Positions 1,100 through 28,875 of a stretch of 39,623 bases of DNA are shown in pieces (the first letter of the stretch is position 1; the number at the start of each line of letters is the position of its first letter). A program made the translations under genes and the position numbers. This DNA is from Pseudomonadota bacterium (GTDB taxonomy: Bacteria; Pseudomonadota; Gammaproteobacteria; Competibacterales; Competibacteraceae): the NCBI GenBank assembly GCA_029780415.1, contig JAKOYN010000073.1, positions 1 through 39,623 of the forward strand. The letters run 5' to 3'. Below the pieces are notes generated by a model. It was not told the DNA's origin. It made no database searches and saw only the letters and a list, made by a program, of their open reading frames with translations.

Positions 1100-2302
1100 A
1101 TGCGCACCGGATCAATCCTGTTAACCATCATCCTGCTGTTCGTGCTCGATCTGGGCAGCGCGCGCGCCGATGAAGCTTCTTGGCTGGATACCCTGCAAGT
1201 GCATGGTTTCGCCAGCCAGGCCGCCGTGCAAACCAGCGATAATCATTTTTTCGGTGACAGCGACGATCAGTTCTCGCTGGACTTCACCGAACTGGGTATC
1301 AACGCCTCGCTGCAGCCGCAACCCTGGCTGCTGCTGTCTGGCCAATTGCTGTCGCGGCGCGCCGGCGAGATGTACGATGGCAGCCCGACTGTTGACTATG
1401 CGCTGGCCGATATCACCTTCGCCGCCACCCCTGATTACCTGCTGGATTTGCGCATTGGGCGCATCAAGAATCCGCTCGGACTGTACAACGAAACCCGCGA
1501 TGTGCCCTTCACCCATCCGGGCATCTTCCTGCCCCAGGTGGTCTATTACGACCGGGTGCGCAACCTGATGCTCGCCTCCGATGGCATGATGCTCCATGGC
1601 GAGCTGTATGGTGATACCGGCACGTTTACATTCACCCTTGGCGGCGGCCAGTCCGTCATGGACGAAAATGTCGAGTGGACCTACCTCGGCTATGACTTCG
1701 ACGGCGAACTGAAACCGGATGGCAATACCGGGATTGCCAGCTTCTGGTACACGCTGCCGGGCGATCAACTCAAATTCGGCCTGAGCGGCGCGGCCTTGTC
1801 CATGCATTTCAACCCCGGCCCGTATTCGCCACTCAGTAATGGCACCACTGAACTCCTCTATTGGATCGCCTCCATCCAGTACGACGCCGAAGACTGGACC
1901 CTGTCGGCCGAGTACGCCAGCGAACCACTCGAATGGCGTGACTATGGCCCCTTTTTCATGAATCGCAAGGTTACCACCGAGGGCTATTACCTGCAGGGAC
2001 TCTACCGGATCCGTCCCGATATCCAACTGATGCTGCGCTACGAGGAAGGCTTTGCCGACCGCAATAACCGCGCGGGCACGCCACCACCAGGCGTTACTGC
2101 GGGCCTGTTGCCACCTTACGCCAACTTCTCCAAGATCTGGACCACGGGGCTGCGCTGGGACATTGACCGCAACTGGATGCTGCGCGTCGAGTACCAGCGC
2201 CACCACGGAACCTTCGTGCTATCGCCCCGGGAAAATCTCGATCCTGGCCAGTTGCGCGAGGATTGGGATCTATTCGCCATCCAGGCCGCGTTTCGTTTCT
2301 AA
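1100..2302 (+). CDS. Outer-membrane beta-barrel protein, family unassigned
   Basis: The N-terminus, MRTGSILLTIILLFVLDLGSARA, is a signal peptide. Aromatic residues alternate along the sequence, and the C-terminus ends ...AIQAAFRF with a terminal Phe, typical of OMP barrels. Confidence 0.7.
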   Translation: MRTGSILLTIILLFVLDLGSARADEASWLDTLQVHGFASQAAVQTSDNHFFGDSDDQFSLDFTELGINASLQPQPWLLLSGQLLSRRAGEMYDGSPTVDYALADITFAATPDYLLDLRIGRIKNPLGLYNETRDVPFTHPGIFLPQVVYYDRVRNLMLASDGMMLHGELYGDTGTFTFTLGGGQSVMDENVEWTYLGYDFDGELKPDGNTGIASFWYTLPGDQLKFGLSGAALSMHFNPGPYSPLSNGTTELLYWIASIQYDAEDWTLSAEYASEPLEWRDYGPFFMNRKVTTEGYYLQGLYRIRPDIQLMLRYEEGFADRNNRAGTPPPGVTAGLLPPYANFSKIWTTGLRWDIDRNWMLRVEYQRHHGTFVLSPRENLDPGQLREDWDLFAIQAAFRF

Positions 2303-2313
2303 AAGGCAGCGCC

Positions 2314-4725
2314 ATGGACCTGCATCGTCCGTTATCTTCGCCGGTGCGCTATCTGAGCCTGCGCTGGAAGACGCTGATCCTGCTCAGCGTCGTGCTGGTG
2401 CTGGTCAATACCGCGCTGGCGCTGCTGGCCTACCGGCAATCAGCGCGGCAGTTCAATCAGCAGCAGGCGCAACTGCGCGAGCAGCACATCCGCCAGTTTC
2501 GTTCCCTGTTCGATGAGGGCTATCGGCAGATGTCGCGGCTGGCCAACATCGTGCCACTGCTGGGCTCCTATCATCCAGCCCCGGATCTCAATGCCCGCCT
2601 GCGCCAGGCAGTAGGCGCCAACGGCTATATGCTCGATCTGGAATGGGATATCCGCTCGGTGCACTGGCTCCCGGCCACCGGCCAGCTCACCCTGCTGTGG
2701 CCACCTGAAGCGCCGCCGCTGCCGATCACAGTCGCTGAGCAATTGCGCGCGGCGACCGAGCACACCACCACTCTGCTGTCCTGTGACGAGGACTGTCGCC
2801 AATATTTGGCTTCGCCCCTGCTCTGGGAAAGCCATTTTGCCGGTACCCTGCTCCTCAGCCGCTCACTGGCCGATATGCTGCTGGCCTTCCAGGCGCTGAC
2901 GGGTGTCGATGTTGCCATAGTCAATACCCAGATTGCCGCCACCCGACCCGCGCCGGCGGACTGGATGCAGCGCCGCTTCCCAGCCGTCACACATCGTGAA
3001 CAACTGCAACTGATTCTGGTAGAGACTGGACTGACCCAGCAGCTACTCGCGCCCGGTGATAGCCCGCACTGGGTGACCGTCGGCGCGCAGACCTTTGAGC
3101 TGTCGCGCCTCGCTACCCTGGCGACCGGCGTCGATGCCCTGGCCATCACTGAAGTCACCGCCCAGCGTCAGGCTATCGCCCAGGCAACCCGCAACAGCTT
3201 CCTGATCGGCCTGCTCGGGCTGGCGCTCTCGGAAACCCTGCTGCTGCTGCTGCTGCGCAAACCGCTATCCCGGCTGCGCCGCCTGGCCGAACTGCTGCCG
3301 CTGCTCGCTGAAAACCGCCATGTCGAACTGCGCACCCGGCTGCCGCTGCTGGGCCGTTCGCCCCTGCATCGGGACGAAATGGACCTGCTGGTCGATACGG
3401 TTGGCAATCTGACCACGCGCATGCAACAGCTCCAGCAAGACCGCGAAGAGGCCGAAAGCCGCCTGCTGTGGCTGGCCGATCACGACCCGCTGACCACGCT
3501 GGCCAACCGCCGGCGCTTCAACGACGATTTCAGCCGGGTGATTGATCAGGCCCTGCGCTATAACCACTCGGGCGCGCTGCTGTTTTTCGATCTCGACCAG
3601 TTCAAGGATGTCAACGACCTCAGCGGTCACAGTATCGGCGACCAACTGCTGATCCAGATCGCCAGCCAGCTGCAGCAGATCGTGCGCAAAAGCGACCTGC
3701 TAGCGCGCTTTGGCGGCGACGAATTCGCGCTGGCCATCCCGGAATCGAGCGTCGAGCAGGCCATCGTCACTGCCGAGCGCGTGCAGGAGGCGGTGCGCGC
3801 CATCGTGCTGCACAGCCACGGCCGGCGGCATCAGGTATCCGCGAGCATCGGCATCGCCCTGTTTCCGCTCCACGGTGAACAGCCTCAGCAGGTACTGGCC
3901 AACGCCGATCTGGCCATGTACCAGGCCAAGGCCAAGGGCCGTGGCGTCTGGCACCTGTTCTCCGACGATGAACAGGCCCGCGAGCAGGCCGCCAGCCGCG
4001 TGCTGTGGAAACAGAAAATCGCCGATGCCCTGGCCGAGAACCGCTTCGAGTTGTACGGCCAGCCGATCCTGCACATCCCCACTCAACGCGTGACCCGCAT
4101 GGAGGTGCTGCTGCGGATGCGCGAAACCGATGGCACACTGGTCTATCCTGACCGTTTCATCCCAATCGCCGAGCATACCGGCCAGATTAGGGCCATCGAT
4201 CACTGGGTGCTGGCGCGGGCGATCGCCTTGATGCATGAGCAGCCGGAACTCTGCCTGTCGGTCAACCTGTCCGCCGGCGCTCTGGAAGATCCCTCGCTGC
4301 TGCCAGACATTGAGGCCCAGTTGCGTGACCAGAACATCGTCGCGGCGCGGGTGACCTTTGAAATCACCGAAACCGTCGCCATCAACAACCTGCAGGACGC
4401 CATCCGGCTGATGCACAGCATTCGTCAACTCGGCTGCCGCTTTGCCCTGGACGATTTCGGCAGCGGTTTTGCCTCCTATGCCTATCTACGGCAGTTACCG
4501 ATCGACGATGTAAAAATCGACGGAACCTTCATTCGCGAACTGGCGGCAAACCGCGAAGACCAGATCTTCGTTAAGTCGATCACCGACATTGCCCACGGCA
4601 TGGGCAAGCGGGTCGTCGCCGAGTTTGTTGAGAACGAAGAGATTCTGCGCATCCTCGGCGAAATCGGCGTCGACTACGCTCAGGGCTACCACATTGGCCG
4701 ACCGGCACCGCTGCCAGCGGCCTGA
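2314..4725 (+). CDS. Membrane sensor diguanylate cyclase/phosphodiesterase (periplasmic sensor domain, TM, GGDEF and EAL domains)
   Basis: Two TM segments flank a ~280-aa periplasmic region. The GGDEF motif is RFGGDEFAL, preceded by LFFDLDQFKDVND. The EAL domain shows EVLLRMRE ... FALDDFGSGFASYAYLRQLPIDDVKID. Confidence 0.9.
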   Translation: MDLHRPLSSPVRYLSLRWKTLILLSVVLVLVNTALALLAYRQSARQFNQQQAQLREQHIRQFRSLFDEGYRQMSRLANIVPLLGSYHPAPDLNARLRQAVGANGYMLDLEWDIRSVHWLPATGQLTLLWPPEAPPLPITVAEQLRAATEHTTTLLSCDEDCRQYLASPLLWESHFAGTLLLSRSLADMLLAFQALTGVDVAIVNTQIAATRPAPADWMQRRFPAVTHREQLQLILVETGLTQQLLAPGDSPHWVTVGAQTFELSRLATLATGVDALAITEVTAQRQAIAQATRNSFLIGLLGLALSETLLLLLLRKPLSRLRRLAELLPLLAENRHVELRTRLPLLGRSPLHRDEMDLLVDTVGNLTTRMQQLQQDREEAESRLLWLADHDPLTTLANRRRFNDDFSRVIDQALRYNHSGALLFFDLDQFKDVNDLSGHSIGDQLLIQIASQLQQIVRKSDLLARFGGDEFALAIPESSVEQAIVTAERVQEAVRAIVLHSHGRRHQVSASIGIALFPLHGEQPQQVLANADLAMYQAKAKGRGVWHLFSDDEQAREQAASRVLWKQKIADALAENRFELYGQPILHIPTQRVTRMEVLLRMRETDGTLVYPDRFIPIAEHTGQIRAIDHWVLARAIALMHEQPELCLSVNLSAGALEDPSLLPDIEAQLRDQNIVAARVTFEITETVAINNLQDAIRLMHSIRQLGCRFALDDFGSGFASYAYLRQLPIDDVKIDGTFIRELAANREDQIFVKSITDIAHGMGKRVVAEFVENEEILRILGEIGVDYAQGYHIGRPAPLPAA

Positions 4726-4728
4726 GGT

Positions 4729-6507
4729 TCACGGTGCCCTAGCCGGCGCAGGCGGCGGACTGCCGGCCGTCTGACCCAAACCACGCGCCACGGTGCTGTT
4801 GCCGAGGAAACCGAAGATCGCCGCCGCCGCTGGCAGCGAGTTATTCGCTTCGCTGCCCTCGACCAGCACATTTGGTACTTTCACCGCCTCGGGATGGGCG
4901 GCGATAAAGGCCAGCACGTCCTTGACCATCGCCAACTGATAGGTCAGTTCGCGGCCGAGCACACCGGCCTGCGCCTGCTGGCCAGCGGCGATTTCCTGCA
5001 GGCGCAGCTTTTCACCTTCACCACGCAATTGCGCTGCAGTGCGATCCTGCTTGGCCACCTCGACCTGAATTTCGGCGCGCACCAGTTCTGACTGCTGCTC
5101 GGCGGTGGAGCGGGCCTTTTCGGTCTTGATGCGCTCTTCCTGCGCCTGCTGCTCCTTCTGGAAGGTCGTGGTCATCTGCTGCGCCAACTGCTCGCGCTTG
5201 CGAGCCAGCAGCAGTTCCGGCGGCAGCGCCGGATCGCCAAAGCGCACCTCACGCACTGAGACACCCGCGTTGCGTGCCTCGGGAATCAGGGCTTCCAGCA
5301 CTGCCTGCTCCAGTTGCGGCCGCTTGTCCTGCAGATCCAGCACCCGATGCACGCTCTGAGTGACATCGCCGCCCCGGGCATCGACCGGCGCCACATAGGA
5401 ACCGGTGACGTTGCGCACGATGCTGCGCACCGTCGGAGTCATGATCTTGTCCTCGACCGCCTGCAGATCACCGACCGAGGCGACCACAAAAGGCGCATCC
5501 TCCGGCGTTACTTGGGCCAGCACGCGCAGATCCTGCGGAATTTCCCAGCCTTCGACCCGCAGCAGCACGGCGTTATCAGCGGCATTCTGGGGTGTCACCA
5601 CATCCTCGCGCTCGGCGGTCTGTTCGATCTGGCCATTCTGGTTCAGAGTCAGATTGATGCGCCGTTTGACGTAGCCGCCCTGGTATTGCCAGGTCTGGAT
5701 GCGGGTATCAACCAGCGCCACTTCATAGGCACGCTTGTTAAGGTAATAGGTACCCGGCAGCAGCGGCTCGCTCCACACCCCGCGACAGCCACGCGGCACC
5801 AGGGGCACCGACAGCTTTTCGGTGCGCTCATCGTGGATCGGCTGGCAATTCTCGGCCGGAATCTCGCGGACGTTGGATTTGATCACCGCGACAAAGCCGG
5901 CCGGCACCGAGGTCGCGCGCAGTGGCTCACCCTTGGCCTGCACCTCAAACAGATACTGATTGAGGCGATAGCGCCCGGGCTTGAGCACCGTCAATTGCGG
6001 TCCCTTCTGCCCCTGACCCTGGTTGAGGAAAAAGTCGGCATCGAGCATGCGCTGCTCGTCACGCCAGGCATCGGCGAGAAACTGATCCGGGCGCAGCGGC
6101 AATCCATCACGCGCGACCAGATAGCCGTAGTGGCCCTCGGGCACCTCGGTCACCGGCAACTGCTCGACTTCATAGAGCAGATTCAGCAGCGGCTTGAAAT
6201 TAAAGCCGGGACCAAGGATTTCCGCCTGCGGGCCAGCCTCGCCGGACATGGCGATGATATGACCCGATGGCAACTGCTTAACGCCATAGATCAGCTTCAG
6301 ATGGCCGACCTTGTCCTGATCGATGATGACAAAGGAGGTCGCCAGCACCATGAACACCGCCGCCAGCGATAGCGCGACGCGGATTCCGCTGCGCAGCCAG
6401 CCGAGGGTGATAGGCTGGCCACCGCGCGTGGTTCTGGTTTCGGGAATAAAGCGCGGTATGAAAATCGCGCCGAGTATAAACAGCAAAATCAGCAGCAGAA
6501 GGGTCAT
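4729..6507 (-). CDS. Flotillin/SPFH (band-7) family membrane protein, YqiK-like
   Basis: There is an N-terminal TM helix, an SPFH-like core, and a C-terminal E/Q/A/R-rich coiled-coil region (EQQAQEERIKTEKARSTAEQQSELVRAEIQVEVAKQ). It is convergent with the GGDEF-EAL gene across a 3-bp gap. Confidence 0.8.
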   Translation of the reverse strand: MTLLLLILLFILGAIFIPRFIPETRTTRGGQPITLGWLRSGIRVALSLAAVFMVLATSFVIIDQDKVGHLKLIYGVKQLPSGHIIAMSGEAGPQAEILGPGFNFKPLLNLLYEVEQLPVTEVPEGHYGYLVARDGLPLRPDQFLADAWRDEQRMLDADFFLNQGQGQKGPQLTVLKPGRYRLNQYLFEVQAKGEPLRATSVPAGFVAVIKSNVREIPAENCQPIHDERTEKLSVPLVPRGCRGVWSEPLLPGTYYLNKRAYEVALVDTRIQTWQYQGGYVKRRINLTLNQNGQIEQTAEREDVVTPQNAADNAVLLRVEGWEIPQDLRVLAQVTPEDAPFVVASVGDLQAVEDKIMTPTVRSIVRNVTGSYVAPVDARGGDVTQSVHRVLDLQDKRPQLEQAVLEALIPEARNAGVSVREVRFGDPALPPELLLARKREQLAQQMTTTFQKEQQAQEERIKTEKARSTAEQQSELVRAEIQVEVAKQDRTAAQLRGEGEKLRLQEIAAGQQAQAGVLGRELTYQLAMVKDVLAFIAAHPEAVKVPNVLVEGSEANNSLPAAAAIFGFLGNSTVARGLGQTAGSPPPAPARAP

Positions 6508-6600
6508 GGACAGCCTCTCACGGTTCGCCGCAGCGAGTCGCTGTTCAGCGTTGCAGGGATTGGTTAGAGTCTAGCGCCTGTTCCATGATCTGATACTGCG

Positions 6601-9600
6601 ATGCCCGACCTTCCCGTGCCCACGCTTGCCGACCCGTCCCGCTGGCAGTTCTGGATTGACCGTGGCGGTACCTTCACCGATATCGTCGCCCGCCGCCCCG
6701 ATGGCCAACTGGTGACGCATAAGCTGCTCTCGGACAATCCCGGGCATTATGCCGATGCGGCCCTGCACGGGATTCGCCAGTTGCTCGGCCTGTCCCGGGA
6801 CCAGCCAATTCCCGCCGAACGCATCGCGGCGGTGAAAATGGGCACTACCGTCGCCACCAATGCCCTTTTGGAACGCAAGGGTGACCGTACTCTGCTGCTC
6901 ATTACCCAGGGCTTTCGCGACGCTCTGCGCATCGGCTATCAGAATCGGCCCAGGCTGTTCGCCCGCCATATCGTGCTGCCGGAATTGCTGTACGAGCGGG
7001 TCGCGGAAGTGAACGAGCGGGTCGCGGCGCACGGCGACATCATCATCCCCTTCGATGCCGACAGCACCCGCGCGGCGCTGATCGACGCTTACCAGGCCGG
7101 TATCCGCGCCGTAGCCATCGTGTTCCTGCACGGCTATCGCTACCCGGATCACGAGCGGCGCGCGGCAGAACTGGCGCGCGCCATTGGCTTCAGCCAGATT
7201 TCAATCTCGCATCAGGTCAGTCCGCTGATGAAGCTGGTCGGGCGCGGCGACACCACCGTAGTGGACGCTTATCTATCGCCGATCCTGCGCCGCTACGTTG
7301 ACCGGGTGAGCGCCGAACTGGGCAACGCGCGCCTGCTGTTCATGCAGTCCAATGGTGGTCTGGCCGATGCCCGCCATTTCCAGGGCAAGGACAGCGTTCT
7401 GTCCGGCCCGGCCGGTGGCATCGTTGGCGCCGCCCGCAGCACGGCCCGCGCCGGCTTCGACCGGATCATCACCTTCGACATGGGCGGTACATCCACCGAT
7501 GTCGCCCACTACGCCGGCGCATACGAACGCGCCTTCGAAACCCTGGTCGCTGGCGTGCGGCTGCATGCACCGATGCTGCATATCCATACCGTAGCGGCGG
7601 GCGGTGGCTCGATCTGCCGCTTTGACGGCAGCCGGCTGCGGGTTGGACCGGAATCCGCCGGCGCCCATCCCGGTCCGGCCTGCTACCGGCGCGGTGGGCC
7701 GCTGACCGTGACCGACTGCAACCTGCTTCTCGGGCGGATTCAGCCGGCATTCTTCCCGCGCGTGTTCGGTGCCACTCAGGATCAGGCCCTGGACCGGGCA
7801 ACGGTCATCGACCGGTTTGCAGCGCTGGTCGCCAGAATTCAGGCCGCAACCGGAACGCTGCATACGCCAACGGCACTGGCCGAGGGCTTCCTGAATATCG
7901 CCATCGAAAACATGGCGAATGCCATCAAGCAGATTTCCACCCAGCGCGGTTATGACGTGACCGAATACACCCTGTGCTGCTTTGGCGGTGCCGGCGGCCA
8001 GCATGCCTGCGCGGTGGCCGATGCGCTGGGCATGTCGAGCGTCTTCATTCATCCCTTTGCCGGGGTGTTGTCGGCCTATGGCATGGGGCTGGCCGACGCC
8101 CGGCTGTTGCGGGAACAGGCGATCGAAGCGCCGCTGAGCGCCGCACTTTTGCCAACCCTGGAAAGGGTATTCGCCAAACTGGAACAGGCCGGCCGGACGG
8201 AAATGGCAGCGCAGGACATTCCCGCCGCGCACATCCGCAGCGCCCGTACCGTTCGCCTGCGCTACGCCAACAGCGATAGCGCTCTGAGCATCACCGCCGA
8301 TGAGCTGAGCACCCTGCAGGCACGCTTTGAAAGCGCTCACCGGCAGCGCTATGGTTTTCTCATGCCGGACAAGGCATTGATCGTACAGGCAGCGCTGCTT
8401 GAGGTGATCGGCGGTGGCTTCGATATCGGCCACGCCGATGCGCCTGAACCGGCTGGCCCTGTGCCAGAATCCAAGGCGGCATCATCAACCCCGCAACCCA
8501 TCACAACGGTCCCGGTGCATATTGCGGGTCGCGACCATGATGCGCCCCTGTACCGGCGTGACCAGTTGCGCCCCGGCGATCGCATCCCCGGTCCCGCCAT
8601 CCTGAGTGAAACCGGCGCTACGACGCTGATCGAACCCGGCTGGCAGGCCGACATCACGGCGCGGCACGATCTGGTGCTGACGCGGCATGAACCCCTCGCT
8701 CGACGGGTAGCGGTCGGGACTGCAGCGGATCCTATTTTGCTGGAGGTGTTCAACAACCGGTTCATGGCCATCGCCGAACAGATGGGCGTGACCCTGGCCA
8801 ATACCGCGCATTCGGTCAACATCAAGGAACGGCTGGATTTTTCCTGCGCGCTGTTCGACCAGAACGGTCAATTGATCGCCAACGCCCCGCATATTCCGGT
8901 GCATCTTGGTTCGATGGGCGAAGCGGTGCAGGCACTCATTCAGGCACAGGGCGACCGGTTCCTGCCCGGCGACGTCTACGCCAGCAACGCGCCCTACAGC
9001 GGCGGGACGCATCTGCCGGACATCACGGTCATCACCCCGGTTTTCGATGCAGAAGGGGAACAGGTTCTGTTCTACGTCGCCTCGCGCGGCCATCACGCCG
9101 ACATCGGCGGCATTTCGCCCGGCTCGATGCCGCCGGACAGCGTCAGCATCGATCAGGAAGGCGTGTTACTGGACAATTTTCCACTGGTGACAGGCGGACG
9201 GTTCTGCGAGCGGGAACTGCTCGAACAGTTGAACCGTGGCCCCTGGCCGGCTCGCAACCCGCAGCAAAATCTCGCTGACCTGCAGGCCCAGATTGCCGCC
9301 AACGGCAAGGGTGTGCAGGAACTGCAGCACATGGTGGCACAGTTTGGATTACCGGTGGTCCACGCCTACATGGGCCACGTCCAGGATAACGCCGCCGAAC
9401 AGGTACGCCGGGCGCTGGACCGGCTGCAGGAGGGTAAGTTCACCTACGAGATGGACAACGGCGCGGCTATCCGGGTCGCTATCACACTGGATCGGGAACG
9501 CCGCTCGGCCCGGATCGACTTCACCGGCACCTCGCCGCAACAGGCCAGCAATTTCAATGCACCGCGCGCGGTAGGTCTGGCGGCGGTGCTGTACGTGTTC

Positions 9601-20121: not shown

Positions 20122-20140
20122 GAATAAAACCGTTTTATTC
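20122..20140. promoter_or_regulatory. Perfect 19-bp palindrome, a candidate enhancer (UAS) for the sigma-54 activator
   Basis: GAATAAAACcgGTTTTATTC has 9-bp inverted arms with a 1-nt centre. It lies ~65-80 bp upstream of the -24 element, and an AT-rich tract sits between them. Confidence 0.45.
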
Positions 20141-20202
20141 ATGACACAGATTCGATTTACGGTCATTCAATTAATTATTATTAAAAACATCAAGTTAACG
20201 AT

Positions 20203-20218
20203 TGGCACGATGGTTGCT
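20203..20218 (+). promoter_or_regulatory. Sigma-54 (RpoN) promoter, -24/-12 elements
   Basis: TGGCACGatggTTGCT is a perfect match to TGGCACG-N4-TTGCW, with GG at 20204-20205 and GC at 20216-20217. It lies ~84 bp upstream of the ATG of the first small secreted protein gene. Confidence 0.8.
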
Positions 20219-20300: not shown

Positions 20301-20588
20301 ATGAAAACCAAACTGTATAGCGCTATTGTCGGTGCCACTCTGCTGGCCGCTTCCGGTCTGGCCATGGCTGAAACCCCGCTGACCACCAGTCAGATGGACG
20401 GCGTGACTGCGGGTGGCGTCGCCACAGCAACGGCACTCGCGGCAGCGGCGGGCAAATACCTAGCGGCGACCGTAACCGAAACTGAAACCATCGTTCAGGG
20501 TGTGCTGCTGGTGCCGGTACAAGTCGGCAGCATTTGGGTCGTCGGCACAGGCGCGGGATCCTATTCCGAATCCTATGCCCACAATTAG
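20301..20588 (+). CDS. Small secreted protein, paralog 1 (Sec signal peptide plus Ala-Gly leader-like segment)
   Basis: MKTKLYSAIVGATLLAASGLAMA|ETPLTTSQMDGVTAG|GVATATALAAAAG... has an AXA signal-peptidase site followed by the conserved segment L-[ST]-x-x-[QD]-[ML]-D-x-[VI]-[TS]-A-G. A GGAGG Shine-Dalgarno sits 7 nt upstream. It is the first gene after the sigma-54 promoter. Confidence 0.7.
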   Translation: MKTKLYSAIVGATLLAASGLAMAETPLTTSQMDGVTAGGVATATALAAAAGKYLAATVTETETIVQGVLLVPVQVGSIWVVGTGAGSYSESYAHN

Positions 20589-20644
20589 CTCAGCTTTCCG
20601 GCGTAAGCACTAAACATTTGGCTGACTTATTCAGGAGACTCACC

Positions 20645-20959
20645 ATGAAACGTTTCGCGATTCTTGCCGCCGCCGCCCTGCTGGGCGCCACCAGTTATGC
20701 TAATGCCGAGACCGTGCTGTCCGGCCCGCAAATGGATCAGATCAGCGCAGGTCTTTTCGGTCTTGCGATCACCGAAGGCATGGCCATCGCCACCGGTGAT
20801 ATTGGCTCCCTGTCAACCACAAATTCGGTGAGCGGCGTTAATCTGCTTGCTCCAAACCCAATCGCCTATAGCGCGACCGCTAGCGCTGCCATAGCGACCG
20901 GCTTCCTGGGCGCGGTTGCCGGCAGTCAATCGGCAAGTGGCTCGGAGCTCGGCAACTAA
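20645..20959 (+). CDS. Small secreted protein, paralog 2
   Basis: MKRFAILAAAALLGATSYANA|ETVLSGPQMDQISAG|LFGLAITEG... shows the same signal-plus-leader motif. The mature part is Ala/Ser/Thr/Gly-rich. Confidence 0.7.
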   Translation: MKRFAILAAAALLGATSYANAETVLSGPQMDQISAGLFGLAITEGMAIATGDIGSLSTTNSVSGVNLLAPNPIAYSATASAAIATGFLGAVAGSQSASGSELGN

Positions 20960-21044
20960 GTTGCGAGTCTCTCGAAAGAGCGGTTATCAAACCTTGCGGC
21001 GCGATGACCGCTCGCGCACGACTCAAGCATTGGAGATAGACAAC

Positions 21045-21524
21045 ATGATCAAGCATATGCAGTTAAGCGCTCTATCCCTGTGCGCCTTGACCGCGACCGC
21101 TATTGCAGCGCCACCATCACAAAATCCGCTGACACTATCCAGCATTGACCTGGATCGTGTGACCGCAGGCGGCGTCGTCAATGGCGTTGTTACAGCTTCG
21201 GCAATCGCCTACGGTCCATCGGACGCCATAACCGATACCAGTACATTTTCCAGCACGACACTGAGTCCGGGACCCACAGCCGCGCAGAATTCCACATTGG
21301 TTGTAGTTGTCGGTTCAGCAACCGCCTATGGCGGACTCGGCGGCACCACGGCAACGGCAACTGACAGTGCGATTAATTCCGCCACTACCAACACCGTTGG
21401 CCATACCTACGAAATTAGCCTGCAGGGCCATCTCGCTTCATCCTCGACGGTGTTTGCCTATGAGCTCGGTCGCCCCGCGCAACTCGGTCAGGGCGCTAGT
21501 ACACCGGTGGTATCACCGTATTAG
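21045..21524 (+). CDS. Small secreted protein, paralog 3
   Basis: MIKHMQLSALSLCALTATAIA|APPSQNPLTLSSIDLDRVTAG|GVVNG... shows the same motif. The mature part is Thr/Ser/Ala/Gly-rich and low-complexity. Confidence 0.7.
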   Translation: MIKHMQLSALSLCALTATAIAAPPSQNPLTLSSIDLDRVTAGGVVNGVVTASAIAYGPSDAITDTSTFSSTTLSPGPTAAQNSTLVVVVGSATAYGGLGGTTATATDSAINSATTNTVGHTYEISLQGHLASSSTVFAYELGRPAQLGQGASTPVVSPY

Positions 21525-21529
21525 CCGAT

Positions 21530-21553
21530 CAGGCGTCCCTTCCCGGACGCCTG
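21530..21553 (+). terminator. GC-rich hairpin (9-bp stem) just after paralog 3, with no U-tract; a possible partial terminator or attenuator
   Basis: CAGGCGTCC-cttccc-GGACGCCTG starts 6 bp after the stop codon at 21522-21524. Confidence 0.35.
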
Positions 21554-21603
21554 CGCCGTGCGTGTCCCGGCAATTCCTTCTAGACGGCAGGATCGAGATA
21601 CTC

Positions 21604-22065
21604 ATGAATATGCAAAGCCGATTTCTTTCCCGCACCGGATTCGCTGGCATTTTGGCGCTATTTATACCTCTGGGATCACTCGCTGCTGAAACCACTAGCC
21701 CGGCAGCGACCGTAATTATTCGTTGCGCCTGGCCCGGACCCGCGACGAATCCGGACAATGCCCCTGCCACCGATGGCAACAGCGCTTGCACCTGCGTGAG
21801 CAACGGCAATGGCAGCACCTGCAGTTGCACCAGCGGCGCGGCGACCCCGGTCAATAGCGGCTCCACACCCGTCTTCACCGTCGATGCCAGCTCCAACACA
21901 CCTGCAACCCTGGTCGAGCACCTGAAAACCGCCACCAGTTGCGCCGATGCCAGGGCGTTCACCGAATCCGCCAGTGACGGCGCCCGCCAAGCCTGTACCC
22001 CCCTGGCCAGCGGCTCGGTGAATGCCCTGCTTTATTCCTGCACCGTTCCCGGCACTCCACTGTAG
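21604..22065 (+). CDS. Cysteine-rich secreted protein (8 Cys) with no Ala-Gly leader motif
   Basis: MNMQSRFLSRTGFAGILALFIPLGSLA|AETTSP... is a signal peptide. The mature part carries C-x-C/C-x-C-type cysteine clusters. Confidence 0.6.
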   Translation: MNMQSRFLSRTGFAGILALFIPLGSLAAETTSPAATVIIRCAWPGPATNPDNAPATDGNSACTCVSNGNGSTCSCTSGAATPVNSGSTPVFTVDASSNTPATLVEHLKTATSCADARAFTESASDGARQACTPLASGSVNALLYSCTVPGTPL

Positions 22066-22331: not shown

Positions 22332-22982
22332 ATGCGTGCCAGCCTCATACCCTGCCGCTGCTTTCCCGCGATCATCCTCGCCACGCTCCTGCTCACCGGC
22401 CCGATCCAGACCACTCACGCCGAGGACTATCCGCCGGTCAAGTCACTGCTGGAAATACGCCGCGAACGGGTTGTAATCCAGAAATGGGATCTGAGTTGCG
22501 GCGCCGCAGCCCTGACCACCCTGTTGCGCTACCAGCACGGCGACCCGGTCACCGAAAAGGATGTCGCCACCGCGCTAATCAACCGTAGCGAATATCTGCG
22601 CAATCCTCAGCTCGTGCAGATTCGTGAGGGCTTTTCCCTACTCGACCTCAAGCGCTATGTCGATGGTCGCGGCTATCAGGGCACCGGCCTGGGCCAGCTC
22701 ACCCTCGACGACCTCAATCGGCGCGCACCGATCCTGATTCCGATCCAGACCCGGGGCTACAACCACTTCGTGGTGTTCCGTGGCCAACGCGACAACCGCG
22801 TCCTGCTCGCTGACCCGGCCTGGGGCAACCGCACCATGACCGTAGAGCACTTCATGCAGGCTTGGATCGACTACCCAAAAATCGGTCACGTTGGCTTCGT
22901 CGTCGAAGCAGCGCCCGGTCATCCACGCAGCGCATCCACACCGCTTGCACCGCGCCCCGAGGAATTCGTCACGTTCAATTGA
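22332..22982 (+). CDS. Standalone periplasmic C39-like cysteine peptidase (Peptidase_C39_2 / FapD-like architecture)
   Basis: A signal peptide is followed by the catalytic Cys context WDLSCGAAALTTLLRYQ, the His context GYNHFVVFRG, and the Asp context LLADPAWG. Length is 216 aa. There is no ABC-transporter fusion. Confidence 0.75.
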   Translation: MRASLIPCRCFPAIILATLLLTGPIQTTHAEDYPPVKSLLEIRRERVVIQKWDLSCGAAALTTLLRYQHGDPVTEKDVATALINRSEYLRNPQLVQIREGFSLLDLKRYVDGRGYQGTGLGQLTLDDLNRRAPILIPIQTRGYNHFVVFRGQRDNRVLLADPAWGNRTMTVEHFMQAWIDYPKIGHVGFVVEAAPGHPRSASTPLAPRPEEFVTFN

Positions 22983-23054: not shown

Positions 23055-24299
23055 ATGGCCCGTCTGCCGTTTCGCTGGACCCGCCACCCCCTTTCACGCC
23101 ATCCGCTTACGAGCTGTTGCACGACGCTGGGCATCAGCACCCTGAGCCTGTGCCTGCTGAGCGGCGCGCCCGCCAGCGCCGACGATGTCATCACACAAGC
23201 CGACGCCCGCCAGTTACGCCAGGAACTGCGCGAACGGGATCGCATCATTGCTGAACTGCTGGCACGGGTCAGCGAACTGGAACGCCGCATGGATGGCGAC
23301 ACCACGCCACCGGCCAGCACCAGACGCCGCGCCACTGCCAGGACCCGTACCGCACAAATCACCGCGCCGGCACCTGTCGCCACACCTACACCCACGCCTG
23401 AACCGGTAAGCAGCGCGGTCGCGCCGCCTGCTCCGACCGGTCCCGGCGCGGTGGCCATCGATGCACAGGCTGCAGAACGGGCCCTGGAACGGACCCTGAC
23501 CGCCGAGGGCGCCCTGCTGCTGCCAGCGGGCAGTTACGACTTCGAGCCGTACTTCAATTACAACCGCCGGGTCAACGATGGCCCAACCCTGGTGCAAACC
23601 GACGCAGGCATCCTGGCGCGCAGCTTCGGGATCCGTCGCAATGAATTTGATCTGGGTCTGCGCGCCCGCGTCGGCCTGCCCTATGACGCCCAGGTGGAAC
23701 TCGACCTGCCCTATCGCAGCGTCAATCAGGAGCTGTTGCGACCCACCGGCCTGGCCGGCTTCGACAGCACTGAAAATACCGGCTCGGCCATCGGCGACAT
23801 CCGCCTGGGCATCGCCAAAACCCTCAGCCGCGAAAGTGGCTGGCAACCGGACCTGGTCGGACGCCTGACCTGGAACACCGGCACTGGGGAAATCGTCGAT
23901 CAGAACGTACCGATGGGCGATGGCTTCAACCGCCTGCGCGCCTCACTGACTGCGCTCAAGCGTCAGGATCCCCTGGCCTTCACTGCCAGCCTGGCCTACC
24001 AAACCACATTTGAAAAAGACGGTGTCCAACCTGGCAACGAGCTTGGCCTGTCCTTCGGCGTCTCGCTGGCCGCCAGCCCGGAAACCTCGCTGAGTCTTGC
24101 GCTGGCCCAGAGCTTTACTGCCGAAACCGAGTTGAATGGCCGCACGGTTACCGGCAGCGATCAGGTCAGCGGTGTGCTATTGCTCGGCGCATCCTCGGTG
24201 ATCAACCGGCAGACCCTGCTGCTGGTAACCGGCGCCATCGGCCTGACCGATGACGCCCCGGATTACGGCATCAGCATATCGCTACCGATCCGTTTCTAG
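23055..24299 (+). CDS. Outer-membrane beta-barrel with an N-terminal periplasmic coiled coil and Pro/Thr-rich linker (FapF-like architecture)
   Basis: The signal ends ...LLSGAPASA. The coiled-coil heptads are DARQLRQELRERDRIIAELLARVSELERRM, followed by the linker TPPASTRRRATARTRTAQITAPAPVATPTPTPEP. A putative plug helix is AQAAERALERTL. Amphipathic beta-strands end ...ISLPIRF. An AAGGAG Shine-Dalgarno precedes the ATG. Confidence 0.75.
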   Translation: MARLPFRWTRHPLSRHPLTSCCTTLGISTLSLCLLSGAPASADDVITQADARQLRQELRERDRIIAELLARVSELERRMDGDTTPPASTRRRATARTRTAQITAPAPVATPTPTPEPVSSAVAPPAPTGPGAVAIDAQAAERALERTLTAEGALLLPAGSYDFEPYFNYNRRVNDGPTLVQTDAGILARSFGIRRNEFDLGLRARVGLPYDAQVELDLPYRSVNQELLRPTGLAGFDSTENTGSAIGDIRLGIAKTLSRESGWQPDLVGRLTWNTGTGEIVDQNVPMGDGFNRLRASLTALKRQDPLAFTASLAYQTTFEKDGVQPGNELGLSFGVSLAASPETSLSLALAQSFTAETELNGRTVTGSDQVSGVLLLGASSVINRQTLLLVTGAIGLTDDAPDYGISISLPIRF

Positions 24300-25863
24300 A
24301 CCGTCGCCGCCACAGCAACAGCAGCGCCAGCCCGCCACCCAGCAGCCACAGGGTGGCGGCTTCCGCGAGCGGCGGTACCGGCACCGGCCCCGCGAAGGAC
24401 AGCAGCGCGCTGACCGGTGTCGAAACCGGCGTATCGATGGCCTCCAGCACCCCAGTGTCAAAACCCAGGAACAGTTCCGGCAGGTAGAACGAATCCATGC
24501 TGATGCGGCTGAGAAATGCCGCCAGCCAGCGGGAATCGCTCTGCGCGCCCGGTTCCGTCATCAGAATTGGCGCGAAGCCATTGAAACCCTGCACCGGATG
24601 CAAGCTGCCGTCCAGGACCACGGTCGGCGTGCGTGCAGTCAGCACCACATGATGGTTTCCATCGAACAGGCGCAGATCGCTACCGGAAAAATACCGCCGG
24701 CCCTCCAGAGTGCCCAACTGCGCCAGCGGATCAATCTCCAGAAATCCACCCAGCAGGGAATCCGCCAGTTCATCGGCATCGAATGTCCAGTCGCGCCCAC
24801 CCCGAAGCATATCGAGCGGAATCGGATCAAAAGCCAGCAGGCCGCTGGAGGGATCCCAGTGCACCTGCGGATCGCCAGGCGCACCGGACGCCCGGTAGCC
24901 GGCGGATTCTTCGACCTGTATCACCGCGCGGGGCGGTGCCTCGTAGGACTGCTCGGTGTGACGGCTGAACAGGATCAGCCCAAGCGGAGCAAATTCCCGA
25001 TCAAAGGCATCCAGCAGCGGCACCGCTACGCGCAACGGCTCCGCGTCCGGCTGCAGCAGCAGGCGACCCGCAGCAGCGTTGAACTGCGTGGCGAACCAGT
25101 CACGGATCGCGTCACTCCCTGGCACATCAAACACCCGGACCGTGGGCAAGCCATTTTCCAGGTAGCCCAGAAAACCGACCTCATCGTAGCGCACCGCGCC
25201 CGTCGCGCTGATCTGCACAGTCGTCAGCGTATCGCGCATGTAGGCCAGACTGCTCGCCGGCGTGCCCTGCCAGCGCAGCGTATCGAAATCCCAATCCAGA
25301 TGCAGGAACAGATCATCGCTCCCCCGGTCGGGATCGGCGCGGAGCTGAATACCCAGGGCCATACCCTCGGTCATGGCGGTGGCGCGGCCAAAGAGCGGCT
25401 CGGTAGCCCACGCAGCAGCATAGGTCGCCTGGCTTATCGCGAACTGGGCCAGCATGCCGCTCTCATCGAGAGCGCCACCAAGCCATGCCCCGGGGGCCAT
25501 CCCAACCGCGATGCCCGCCCCGGCAGTCGCTGCATGCGCACTGACCCCAGGCACTGCAATTGACGTAAATCCCAAGCCGTCCTGCACTGAACGCACCGTA
25601 GTCGCAAATGTCACCGTACTCGTCGTCGATCCCGCTTGGGCAAGCGCATAGGGATTGCCAATAAACTCAATACCCGCCGTTTCCGACAGCCCGATCGTCA
25701 TAGTCAAAATGCTTGCCGTTTCTGCAGCAGGCACAAAAGATGTTTGCGCAACAGCTGAATTCATAGCGATGCCAAGCCAGCCGATGCCCACTATTGAAAG
25801 CCATCCTTTGTCCCGAAAATACTGCTTTCCGTATTCAGCAAGCGCTCCCTTTAATCTCTGCAT
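24271..25863 (-). CDS. Secreted protein with a PEP-CTERM-like C-terminal sorting signal (variant Pro-rich motif)
   Basis: The N-terminus is MQRLKGALAEYGKQYFRDKGWLSIVGIGWLGIAMNSAVAQ. The C-terminus is ...VPVPPLAEAATLWLLGGGLALLLLWRRRSRNGSVAIC, giving a Pro motif, a TM helix and an Arg cluster. The 3' end overlaps the convergent OMP gene by 29 bp. The start is uncertain, since the ORF is open up to 26067. Confidence 0.6.
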   Translation of the reverse strand: MQRLKGALAEYGKQYFRDKGWLSIVGIGWLGIAMNSAVAQTSFVPAAETASILTMTIGLSETAGIEFIGNPYALAQAGSTTSTVTFATTVRSVQDGLGFTSIAVPGVSAHAATAGAGIAVGMAPGAWLGGALDESGMLAQFAISQATYAAAWATEPLFGRATAMTEGMALGIQLRADPDRGSDDLFLHLDWDFDTLRWQGTPASSLAYMRDTLTTVQISATGAVRYDEVGFLGYLENGLPTVRVFDVPGSDAIRDWFATQFNAAAGRLLLQPDAEPLRVAVPLLDAFDREFAPLGLILFSRHTEQSYEAPPRAVIQVEESAGYRASGAPGDPQVHWDPSSGLLAFDPIPLDMLRGGRDWTFDADELADSLLGGFLEIDPLAQLGTLEGRRYFSGSDLRLFDGNHHVVLTARTPTVVLDGSLHPVQGFNGFAPILMTEPGAQSDSRWLAAFLSRISMDSFYLPELFLGFDTGVLEAIDTPVSTPVSALLSFAGPVPVPPLAEAATLWLLGGGLALLLLWRRRSRNGSVAIC

Positions 25864-26158: not shown

Positions 26159-27544
26159 TTATTTCCTGAGTTTTCTATGCGCCTGATTATTTTCGTTCAT
26201 CTCTACATTGAACTTGCAAAGCCGGTACAGCGAGGCGCGGGAAATACCCAGAACCTTGGCCGCGCGGGTCAGGTTTCCATTAGCATGCTGAATCGCGATG
26301 TGGATTGCATCATGCTCGGCTCTCTTGCGCGCCTCTTCAATAGTGACGATTTGTCTGGAATTATTGCGCCGATCCAGATCCAGATGTTTCGGAGCAATCA
26401 GCCGGTCATCGCAAAACAGCACCGCTCGCTCGACCCGGTTGATCAACTCGCGCACATTGCCAGGCCAGTTGTGCACACGCATGACCCGCAAGGCTTCAAT
26501 GCTGAAGTCTCTGGGTTTCGACTTGTTTTGCTCCCTGAGAAATTTCTCTAGAAAACAATAAGCTAGATCTATAATATCGTCTTCTCTTTCCCGCAGTGGC
26601 GGCATTTGCAGATGCAGTGTATTCAAGCGATAGTACAGATCCTCACGAAAAGTACCCTCGACCACCGCGCGCTTCAAATCGCGATGGGTAGCGGCAATGA
26701 CACGCACATTCAGACCAATACTTTCAGTACCGCCCAAGCGCTCGATGGTTTTCTCCTGCAGAAAGCGCAGCAGGGCTATTTGTACATCCGGAGCGATATC
26801 GCCTATCTCATCAAGCAGAATTGTACCTTCGTTTGCAGCTTCAATCTTGCCCATCTTGAAGCGGTTTGCGCCGGTAAAGGCACCTCTTTCATATCCAAAA
26901 AGTTCGGATTGAATCAGATTGGCCGGCAATGCAGCACTGTTGACCGTAATCCATGGACCTTTCGCGCGCTGGGAAAATTGATGCAGGGCGCGCGCTGCCA
27001 GTTCCTTGCCTGTTCCGCTTTCGCCGGTAATCAACACGGTTTTTTCAACCGGCGCCATTTTAATGATCTGCTGCCGGACATTCTTCATGGCAGTGGACTT
27101 GCCAATTAGAATGTAATTTTTTTCAATCGACGTGTCGTAATTCCTGGCGATAGATCGTGCCAACTCACTCATGCCATAGGCGCGACAGAGAGCCGGCAAC
27201 AATCGCGACATGTCGATGGGTAATCGCTGGTAATCGTAGAAATGGTTCACAATCGTCTCGCGAACCGCAGGATTGGAGATGGCCGCATCATCGGTCATGG
27301 CAATCCATTGCACATGTTTTCCCAAACTAACCAGTTCCTGGATACAGCGCAAAAAATCCGGTTGATAGCGGGTCATAAACACGATACCCACCCGGTGATT
27401 ATCGGTAAAAATAGCTTTCTTGGCGCTGTTGATGTCATTAATCTTGGTCACATTCCAGTGATCAAGACCAATATTATCAACCAAACTCATACCGTCATGA
27501 TCAGAAAAAAAAAGCAAAACATCTCTACGGTTCAATGTGGACAT
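26159..27544 (-). CDS. Sigma-54-dependent transcriptional activator (bEBP) with a degenerate N-terminal receiver-like domain
   Basis: AAA+ motifs are present: Walker A GESGTGKE, GAFTGA, and ESELFGYERGAFTGA. The C-terminus has a Fis-type HTH (AAKVLGISRASLYRL). The N-terminal ~130 aa look like a receiver fold lacking the acceptor Asp. The gene is markedly AT-richer than its surroundings. Confidence 0.85.
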   Translation of the reverse strand: MSTLNRRDVLLFFSDHDGMSLVDNIGLDHWNVTKINDINSAKKAIFTDNHRVGIVFMTRYQPDFLRCIQELVSLGKHVQWIAMTDDAAISNPAVRETIVNHFYDYQRLPIDMSRLLPALCRAYGMSELARSIARNYDTSIEKNYILIGKSTAMKNVRQQIIKMAPVEKTVLITGESGTGKELAARALHQFSQRAKGPWITVNSAALPANLIQSELFGYERGAFTGANRFKMGKIEAANEGTILLDEIGDIAPDVQIALLRFLQEKTIERLGGTESIGLNVRVIAATHRDLKRAVVEGTFREDLYYRLNTLHLQMPPLREREDDIIDLAYCFLEKFLREQNKSKPRDFSIEALRVMRVHNWPGNVRELINRVERAVLFCDDRLIAPKHLDLDRRNNSRQIVTIEEARKRAEHDAIHIAIQHANGNLTRAAKVLGISRASLYRLCKFNVEMNENNQAHRKLRK

Positions 27545-28711
27545 TGCAACCCCCTAATGACCGCCATTATCCGAAAACCACAATACATCACATGGTTTTT
27601 ATCCAGCCAAGCCAAGTAAAAATCTTAGCAACTCCGAACCTTCGCCATGTGTTGATCGTCCACACTGATCCTAGTATGTATTTTCTTGATTGTGCAATTT
27701 GTCGATCATTTTTATGTCTTGTTTTTAAGATTTTTTATGTCAAAATTTTATGACGTTATACAAATATGGCACTTTTTATATTATTAATCAGCTCATTGAT
27801 GGCATCTTGGCATACGTATTCATGCATCGATACCCCATCATGCATCAACATAAGCATCCATGACTGGAATATTGACACATAAAACCGCCCGATCAAAACG
27901 GCATGATCTGGATTACTTATTCCATTATCAGGGATAACCATGATTTCCATGCACAATAATCCTATCGCATAAAAAGGCGACACAACCAAGCTCCAACAGT
28001 TTTTCCTTAATCAACTATTTTTATTAACTAAATGATTTTAAATAAAATTTATAATCGCATTCATGAAAATATACGCAATAAAGCATTTGCTTTTACAGAA
28101 CAGCATCCGTTGCCTTGCGAAAATCGATCAGAGCATTTCACCAAATAAATCAGGAGACGCACTATCAGGAAAGCCGAAAAGGAGAGACGTGGAGGAAAGC
28201 TAAACTGGCTGCTGCGTGTCTCACGCTGACACATTTGCCTAGCGCATGCCCGGCAAATCCTTCACCCTACAGAACAGGCGCATGTCATGGCATTCACATC
28301 CGCCGCGTGGACGCTGCGCAATGCGTCCCGGGCGACAGGCGCCATCAGGGGATTGATCGAGGAACAGCAAGCCGCTCGATTCGACCAGCGCCGCTCAATT
28401 GCGTGACTGCAGGGCATGCAGTCGCCCGCAGGAACCTTTCATGCGAGAGGTCCGTTGTGCAATCTGTTCCAACACACGGTCGAGCAGCAACCAAGAACGA
28501 TCCTCGAAATTGCACGCCAGCGCCACCCAGCCAATCACCGGCATGCTTCAACCATTGCCAACAGCCACAGGTTCGGAATGCAGGATCATGGCAAGCGCTA
28601 CGCACAGCCAACAGCCGCGCCCCTTGGCCTTGATCAAACCCAGGACTTTCGCTTACCTGACTTTTTCCGTCATACGCGGGAAAGCGGGTATCCATTCTTT
28701 TCAACAAGCTA

Positions 28712-28801
28712 CTGGATTCCCGCATACGCGGGAATGACGAACGACGCGATGTTGAGTCTGTATCTGACCTTCTGAATTCCCGCATACGCGGGAATGACGA
28801 A
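28712..28801. repeat. Two 30-bp direct repeats with internal dyad symmetry around a 30-bp unique spacer, plus a degenerate copy upstream; CRISPR-like geometry or a REP-type element
   Basis: CTGRATTCCCGCATACGCGGGAATGACGAA occurs at 28712-28741 and 28772-28801, a period of 60 bp. The core TTCCCGC-atac-GCGGGAA is a stem-loop. A degenerate CATACGCGGGAA copy lies at ~28671. No cas genes are present in the window. Confidence 0.5.
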
Positions 28802-28823
28802 AAGCGAAAGTCCCGAAACCAAC

Positions 28824-28851
28824 AAAAAAGCGGCCTTACGGCCGCTTTTTT
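28824..28851. terminator. Bidirectional rho-independent terminator serving pgk (minus strand)
   Basis: AAAAAA-GCGGCC-ttac-GGCCGC-TTTTTT is a perfect stem with A and T runs on both sides. It lies 25 bp downstream of the pgk stop. Confidence 0.85.
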
Positions 28852-28875
28852 CCTCAGCAAAAACGACTTGTTACG

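Follow-up and report, generated by a model that had tools for sequence, protein, structure and literature searches.

Contig JAKOYN010000073.1 of a Competibacteraceae assembly (GCA_029780415.1), whose full 39,623 nucleotides (nt) we hereinafter call the window, codes on its minus strand for an exported protein with a C-terminal tail resembling the PEP-CTERM signals on which exosortases act. Comparison with its relatives indicates that this tail descends from a PEP-CTERM domain in which the PEP tripeptide has become AEA in a single clade, and that the gene belongs with a conserved cluster akin to the Fap/Fil fibre secretion systems. Mainly because none of the 46 aligned sequences outside this clade lacks the second proline of the motif, we favor, with a probability of roughly 55%, the reading that the site is no longer recognized in the clade, with the tail serving as a permanent anchor by which the β domain would stay in the periplasm, close to the fibre machinery.

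The position of the motif was established by counting columns in a 50-sequence alignment of the family, with the residues of the window protein as reference. All full-length members end in the element LSF(A/S)G, a variable and often proline-rich linker, a [V/I]-P-x-P motif, a hydrophobic helix and a basic cluster. The window protein, whose C-terminus reads ...SFAGPVPVPPLAEAATLWLLGGGLALLLLWRRRSRNGSVAIC before the stop codon (last residues ...LLSFAGPVPVPPLAEAATLWLLGGGLALLLLWRRRSRNGSVAIC), has L499, A500, E501 and A502 at the four motif columns. Across the alignment, the first of these columns is V, I or L in 44 of the 50 sequences, the second is P in 32, and the third is E in 25 and otherwise A, L or V. 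The fourth is P in 46 of 50, the exceptions being the window protein and its relatives P0001, P0002 and P0003, which read L-A-E-A; the tail of P0001 is identical to that in the window. The spacing from the motif to the conserved L507 and G511 is the same in all aligned sequences and E501 falls under the Glu of PEP; thus, the alignment shows PEP to have become AEA in this clade, with both prolines lost in exact register. Each of the two Ala codons, GCG and GCC, is separated from a Pro codon by its first base alone. In the wider family, a census of 98 tails with a transmembrane (TM) helix gave 46 with PEP or PDP, 20 with PxP outside this clade and 10 with xEP.

The remaining parts of the tail are kept in this clade. 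L507, G511 and L515 of the helix are conserved across the family and columns 519–523 are mostly R or K, so that, of the tripartite architecture proposed in the preliminary description of this locus, the hydrophobic helix followed by RRRSR stands, while the assignment of its Pro motif, discussed below, was wrong. No other tail with a C-terminal hydrophobic stretch and at least three Arg/Lys was found in the window among stop-to-stop segments of at least 80 residues in the six frames. The nine residues after the first three arginines, seven of which (N524–C530) follow RRRSR, had also been noted earlier, as a tail after the Arg cluster; they vary across the family and are an incidental read-through into the antisense of the last codons of the neighboring outer-membrane protein (OMP) gene. 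A GlyGly-CTERM/rhombosortase reading of the GGG in the helix was tried and rejected: no model matched, and the GGG lies mid-helix.

All the hidden Markov models (HMMs) of sorting signals that the preliminary description had put forward as checks were run, and the window protein falls below the cut-off of every one. The Pfam PEP-CTERM model (PF07589) gives 13.6 bits against 20.7, and VPDSG-CTERM 15.5 against 22 in NCBIfam (TIGR03778, apparently the model meant there by “VPXXXP-CTERM”) and 15.4 against 25 in Pfam (PF18205). TIGR02595, like VPLPA-CTERM in the NCBIfam scan, shows no match at E ≤ 1. The sub-threshold matches span only residues 501–522, i.e., the helix and basic cluster, with the VPDSG-CTERM alignment confined to the corresponding model positions 6–26. 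Four relatives reach the TIGR02595 cut-off of 16, namely P0004 (17.5 bits), P0006 (16.5), P0008 (16.5) and P0010 (23.4). Since VPEP followed by a TM helix and a basic cluster is found in other members of the family, and these four reach the cut-off, we regard the tail as a PEP-CTERM domain by descent, which upholds the class suggested earlier; this copy itself is not a member, because it lacks the PEP that is near-invariant among the defining features of the class (Haft et al. 2006, PMC1569441).

The likeness to the PEP-CTERM/exosortase class (EpsH, XrtA; TIGR02595, PF07589) lies in the motif at the extreme C-terminus, the helix of about 14 residues, the basic cluster of about five residues that ends seven residues before the stop codon, the signal peptide in the family, and a body without a recognizable domain, as is typical of PEP-CTERM proteins. 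Such proteins were further compared as occurring in several paralogues per genome (median eight) and, in Proteobacteria, as usually having their own sigma-54 promoter together with PrsR/PrsK/PrsT. Here, in contrast, the tail reads AEA for PEP and scores below every model, and the gene does not form an operon by itself under a sigma-54 promoter of its own. Its neighbors code for a FapF-like OMP, a C39 peptidase and small secreted proteins, rather than exopolysaccharide (EPS) or exosortase functions, and the adjacent activator has a VpsR-type N-terminal domain with a PrsR score below the cut-off (388.9 against 502.6 bits for TIGR02915). VPDSG-CTERM (TIGR03778/PF18205) and VPLPA-CTERM/XrtD are proline-containing variants of the class, and a Methylobacter member of the family, with AVPLPNSF, resembles VPLPA; in the window protein, however, the proline-rich stretch is out of register with the motif and these models score below threshold or not at all.

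A protein search recovered 12 relatives of the window protein, and an exhaustive profile search 106 representatives at E ≤ 1e-3, of which 59 have E ≤ 1e-30. The closest genome matches and the named cluster members are Candidatus Competibacteraceae metagenome-assembled genomes (MAGs). No Pfam or NCBIfam model matched the protein body. The AlphaFold2 (AF2) model built from the 50-sequence alignment has an all-β body, and no fold neighbor was found for it in the PDB. These results show the protein to be a member of an uncharacterized all-β family. A candidate catalytic triad, H302/S306/D337, was dropped as its residues vary in the alignment. The C-terminal domain of about 200 residues preceding the tail is also found behind a Porphyromonas-type peptidyl-arginine deiminase domain (PF04371) in P0078 and P0082, making it a mobile pre-tail module; distant proteins that share just this domain have a canonical PEP in almost all cases. 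In one Competibacteraceae MAG (L002, 5076–6578) the homologue is broken into two open reading frames (ORFs) of 147 and 325 residues on a contig with 3x coverage, reflecting either a frameshift or an assembly error.

In most lineages sampled, a member lies beside a FapF/FilC-like OMP gene, usually accompanied by genes for a C39 peptidase and small secreted proteins and, in many cases, for a VpsR-type sigma-54 activator, an arrangement that recurs in relatives down to about 30% identity. The OMP gene is adjacent or one gene off at loci L001, L002, L004, L005, L007–L011 (L008 included), L012, L013, L017/L018 and L019, and the C39 peptidase and small subunits are present too where the contig is long enough. 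The activator lies directly upstream of the homologue at L001, L002, L013, L017/L018 and L019. The homologue and the OMP gene are convergent in the Competibacteraceae MAGs L001 and L002 and at L012, L013, L019 and L004/L005, and co-directional in Methylobacter, L008 and L017, the last of which has the order enhancer-binding protein, homologue and OMP, all co-directional with a 10-bp spacer. Because the linkage to OMP, C39 peptidase and small subunits is conserved in members with canonical PEP (L008, L019) and with variant motifs alike, the protein is best seen as a putative component of a Fap/Fil-like system and not as the product of a free-standing PEP-CTERM gene. Two further genes lie within such modules: L013 has an unannotated gene for a 729-residue protein after the homologue (4796–6985), and at L019 the small subunits are separated from the C39 gene by one for a 944-residue S8 peptidase that carries CLIPPER domains (5830–8664).

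We propose that this gene supplies a Fap/Fil-like fibre secretion system under sigma-54 control with a conserved accessory protein, the tail of which is a lineage-specific, decayed PEP-CTERM domain. The protein would be exported by Sec, after which the C-terminal helix would keep it anchored in the inner membrane, with RRRSR on the cytoplasmic side and the β domain on the periplasmic side. Relatives that retain V-P-x-P would be cut at the motif by an exosortase and passed outward; in this clade, the site would most likely be recognized poorly or not at all, such that the tail might act mainly as a permanent membrane anchor and the β domain might work together with the OMP/C39 fibre machinery. 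Several observations weigh against this proposal. The Glu of the motif is kept and its first Pro is already variable in the family; L003 and L006 have no OMP or C39 gene within their short available flanks; and the ambiguous N-terminal start in this clade leaves the signal peptide uncertain too. Moreover, we know of no experiment that shows which residues an exosortase needs, and AEA might still be cleaved.

The last point leads to a rival with a lesser, though real, claim: the tail may still function as an exosortase signal, with an enzyme in this lineage that accepts AEA mainly by way of the Glu, helix and basic cluster, and the protein would be cut and delivered to the surface or EPS, as would its relatives with VPEP. 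It would account for E501 remaining in register before an intact helix and Arg cluster, and it draws on the fact that the family already accepts VPAP, VPLP, VAEP and VSEP at the site and that other Candidatus Competibacteraceae homologues, L002 and the matching cluster P0007/P0010, keep the canonical PEP, suggesting exosortases in the family. LAEAA is also stably fixed throughout the two closest clusters, whose 31 members come from many metagenomes; however, these sequences are at least 88% identical, so their agreement has little bearing on selection. The universal second Pro outside the clade, the near-invariance of PEP in the class (PMC1569441) and the failure of every sorting-domain model all argue against this rival. 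A good deal less probable still is that VPVPP itself is a novel proline-rich replacement of PEP, i.e., a new sorting variant served by a dedicated exosortase elsewhere in the genome, which extends the earlier claim of VPVPP standing in place of PEP. There are VPVP-type motifs at the PEP position in distant members (EVPVPGSLW in P0041 and LPVPATV in P0029), and the weak VPDSG-CTERM matches noted above could be taken to point the same way. Those matches, however, cover the helix and basic part only, and VPVPP lies five residues upstream of the AEA position, its second Pro being 10 residues from L507 instead of five, in columns (493–498) that are mostly gaps or variable. It is altered to GPVPPLAEAA in P0002 (89% cluster) and GPVPRLAEAA in P0003/L001 (88% cluster) while LAEAA stays. 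We accordingly read VPVPP as part of the linker and not as an equivalent of PEP: the change at this site is a loss of prolines and not the gain of a new Pro motif.

A more basic objection, that no real gene corresponds to the minus-strand ORF or that its tail is a chance hydrophobic and Arg-rich read-out of GC-rich antisense, has next to no chance of being right, and the conservation of the family already refutes it in practice. It could appeal to a 437-residue plus-strand ORF (24250–25563) antisense to the gene, to the lack of an obvious Shine-Dalgarno sequence before the ATG at 25863, and to gene callers differing on the start, with publicly available calls of this gene between 394 and 595 residues long. 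Against it stand the homologues, some with as little as about 30% identity, from Nitrosococcus, Methylobacter, Methyloprofundus and numerous MAGs, in which motifs and synteny are kept, and the AF2 model with its mean predicted local distance difference test score (pLDDT) of 89.5. Substitutions in the coding sequence (CDS) relative to the 88% identical L001 are likewise concentrated at the third codon position, with 67 there as opposed to 25 at the first and 15 at the second. The plus-strand ORF is an antisense shadow of the gene. The ORF ending at 24271 and its tail, as the preliminary description supposed, are therefore no chance feature, the tail being kept across the protein family; the length of 531 residues given there counts the stop codon among the 531 codons from ATG 25863.

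The start codon itself is uncertain. The open frame continues upstream of ATG 25863 to GTG 26067, with ATG 25980 and GTG 26067 as alternative starts, and P0003/L001 have Ile in place of the Met at 25863. Relative to L001, the upstream extension diverges by about 8%, as compared to 8.3% for the bulk of the CDS and 15% for its first 300 nt. Residues 1–40 probably form a Sec signal peptide, with the h-region WLSIVGIGWLGIAM, an AVA/Q site and an unusually long n-region; aligned relatives have short canonical signal peptides with an A-x-A/Q site ending at the same column.

Table 1. Coordinates of the features discussed, as positions in the 39,623-nt window
Feature	Position	Strand	Basis
CDS of the 530-residue exported all-β protein of the PEP-CTERM-tailed family	24271–25863	−	ORF list, homologues, AF2 model
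Probable Sec signal peptide, residues 1–40	25744–25863	−	Read from sequence
VPVPP, residues 494–498, in the variable Pro-rich linker between LSFAG and the sorting motif	24370–24384	−	Alignment
A500-E501-A502, decayed PEP tripeptide (GCG GAA GCC)	24358–24366	−	50-sequence alignment, codons read
Predicted transmembrane helix LWLLGGGLALLLLW, residues 505–518	24310–24351	−	Hydropathy scan; AF2 helix 504–524
Basic cluster RRRSR, residues 519–523	24295–24309	−	Read from sequence
29-bp overlap of convergent 3′ ends	24271–24299		Minus strand: extension after the Arg cluster; plus strand: OMP C-terminus ...ISLPIRF and stop
FapF/FilC-like outer-membrane protein with N-terminal coiled-coil-like segment	23034–24299	+	NCBIfam, Pfam, synteny
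Periplasmic C39 cysteine peptidase, FilB/FapD-like	22332–22982	+	Pfam PF03412, E 1.5e-13
Four small secreted proteins (20301–20588, 20645–20959, 21045–21524, 21604–22065)	20301–22065	+	ORFs
Predicted sigma-54 promoter TGGCACGATGGTTGCT, 82 nt before the first small-subunit ATG	20203–20218	+	Motif scan
Sigma-54 enhancer-binding protein with N-terminal VpsR domain and GAFTGA motif	26159–27544	−	Pfam, NCBIfam

No exosortase matched among the 28 longer ORFs scanned in the window, not every ORF having been scanned, and those that did match a model are housekeeping or signaling genes; the earlier statement that the window has no exosortase holds to this extent. The exosortase sequences used were taken from plasmids (pDV of N. 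vulgaris; Vibrio alfacsensis XrtA), and the best 120 of the 3072 matches to the V. alfacsensis XrtA query are, where named, from Vibrio, Photobacterium and other marine Gammaproteobacteria, making them uninformative on Competibacteraceae. An exosortase in the wider group is nevertheless plausible, as Nitrosococcus oceani is listed with EpsH (PMC1569441) and other Competibacteraceae homologues keep PEP. We found no literature linking Competibacter with an exosortase; one paper mentions Competibacter together with PEP-CTERM.

The window is chromosomal, with parE, glyA, rib genes, pgk, gap, tkt and ubiCA, and the module sits between parE and pgk. The convergent OMP matches FapF (NF058560) over its full length (37–421) with E 1.8e-13, so that the homology implied by calling it FapF-like is sound, yet its 50.1 bits are far under the equivalog cut-off of 700; it scores 31.1 bits against 630 for FilC (NF050079) and 16.8 bits with Pfam PF13557. 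An exact look-up of this OMP, like one of P0008, retrieved no record. The C39 peptidase scores 101.9 bits against 475 for FilB (NF050078) and 90.9 against 330 for FapD (NF058616). Judged by these scores, both are homologues of Fap/Fil components and not equivalogs. The four small secreted proteins, presumed to be fibre subunits or substrates, match no NCBIfam family, FapB/C/E included, and L012 has identical gene calls for them (95, 104, 159 and 153 residues). The first three have a Sec signal peptide directly followed by the motif L-(S/T)-x-x-Q-M-D-x-(V/I)-(S/T)-A-G-(G/A), e.g., PLTTSQMDGVTAGG, which is found in the window (20301–21524) and at L004, L007, L008, L013 and L019. It resembles a double-glycine leader of the bacteriocin type and is a candidate cleavage site for the periplasmic C39 peptidase. 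The fourth small protein lacks the Q-M-D-x-V-T-A-G-G element; it is Cys-rich (...VIIRCAWPGP...CTCVSNGNGSTCSCTSG...) and 62% identical to its counterpart at L013 (9409–9891).

Upstream of these genes lies the sole zero-mismatch match to TGGCAC-N5-TTGCW in the window, which the preliminary description had missed and which recurs in L012. It is preceded by a palindrome, GAATAAAAC-N-GTTTTATTC, at 20122–20141 and an AT-rich stretch. The ATG at 20301 has a GGAGG Shine-Dalgarno sequence in front of it. This perfect −24/−12 element would thus be the promoter of the fibre operon and not of the PEP-CTERM-like gene, upstream of which the scan of the window shows no such element, in agreement with what had been stated before.

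The resemblance to Fap (FapA–F of Pseudomonas; Rouse et al. 2017, PMC5557850) and to the putative Fil pilus extends to a C39 peptidase that is periplasmic and has a signal peptide of its own, an OMP whose N-terminal segment is coiled-coil-like and which is FapF-homologous over its full length, and small Sec-exported proteins encoded upstream within the same operon. The module in the window differs in its scores far under the equivalog cut-offs, in small proteins without a family match, and in their double-glycine-leader-like motif, whereas Fap proteins are reported to lack a canonical double-glycine site (PMC5557850). Further, Fap as described there (FapA–F; PMC5557850) has no PEP-CTERM-tailed component, unlike the module with the PEP-CTERM-like gene. 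Our literature searches found nothing useful on the Fil system and no link between FapF/C39 and PEP-CTERM. The window gave no match in Rfam and tRNA scans.

The sigma-54 activator is encoded directly upstream of, and co-directionally with, the PEP-CTERM-like gene and matches the Pfam models Sigma54_activat (E 6.9e-67), VpsR (1.6e-15) and HTH_8. Since no terminator is predicted in the 295-bp spacer between the two genes, they may possibly be co-transcribed. The upstream regions of the fibre operon, the PEP-CTERM-like gene and the activator share no meaningful motif of at least 10 nt. The activator gene has a GC content of 0.49 (0.55 at third codon positions, GC3) as against about 0.62 (GC3 0.7–0.8) in its neighbors, and a 1.3-kb AT-rich non-coding spacer (GC 0.46) separates it from pgk; the low GC of gene and spacer, which together occupy 26159–28875, suggests either a separate or recent acquisition or a strong regulatory AT-richness. 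About 20 kb away, a GGDEF-EAL protein is encoded at 2263–4725 on the plus strand. VpsR-type domains are known from regulators that respond to cyclic diguanylate (c-di-GMP), and a signaling link between the two proteins is therefore conceivable.

The 29-bp convergent overlap reported earlier is present as described, the OMP gene having its stop at 24299 and the minus-strand ORF its end at 24271. Overlaps of the same kind occur at L012 (29 bp), L019 (24 bp) and L002 (75 bp), with none in L004, and no intrinsic terminator is predicted at the site, where the preliminary description expected the two transcripts to collide or share a terminator. The overlap seems to be a side effect of GC-rich sequence without stop codons, and nothing in it points to a regulatory device.

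Viewed as a single gene, this is a hypothetical protein with a degenerate version of a known signal, and the conserved system that surrounds it is of more interest than the tail. One could go further and see the family as a missing link, i.e., a PEP-CTERM protein with a dedicated outer-membrane translocator of the FapF type, double-glycine subunits processed by the C39 peptidase and a VpsR-like activator, in which the Competibacteraceae signal has turned into a permanent anchor. We consider this unlikely as a whole; if true, the Competibacteraceae clade would be a natural experiment on what exosortases need for recognition. PEP-CTERM recognition and the subsequent crossing of the outer membrane are still mostly inferred from genomics, and the loss in one clade of an otherwise invariant second Pro offers a clean natural contrast for exosortase specificity. 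Likewise, the canonical-looking double-glycine site of the small subunits could help show what periplasmic FapD-type peptidases cleave. As conserved partners of the family, a FapF-like channel and a periplasmic C39 peptidase suggest an undescribed fibre or biofilm system, carried by Candidatus Competibacteraceae MAGs and by relatives of methanotroph (Methylobacter, Methyloprofundus) and nitrifier (Nitrosococcus) genera. Competibacter is an organism of activated sludge, a setting in which aggregation matters.

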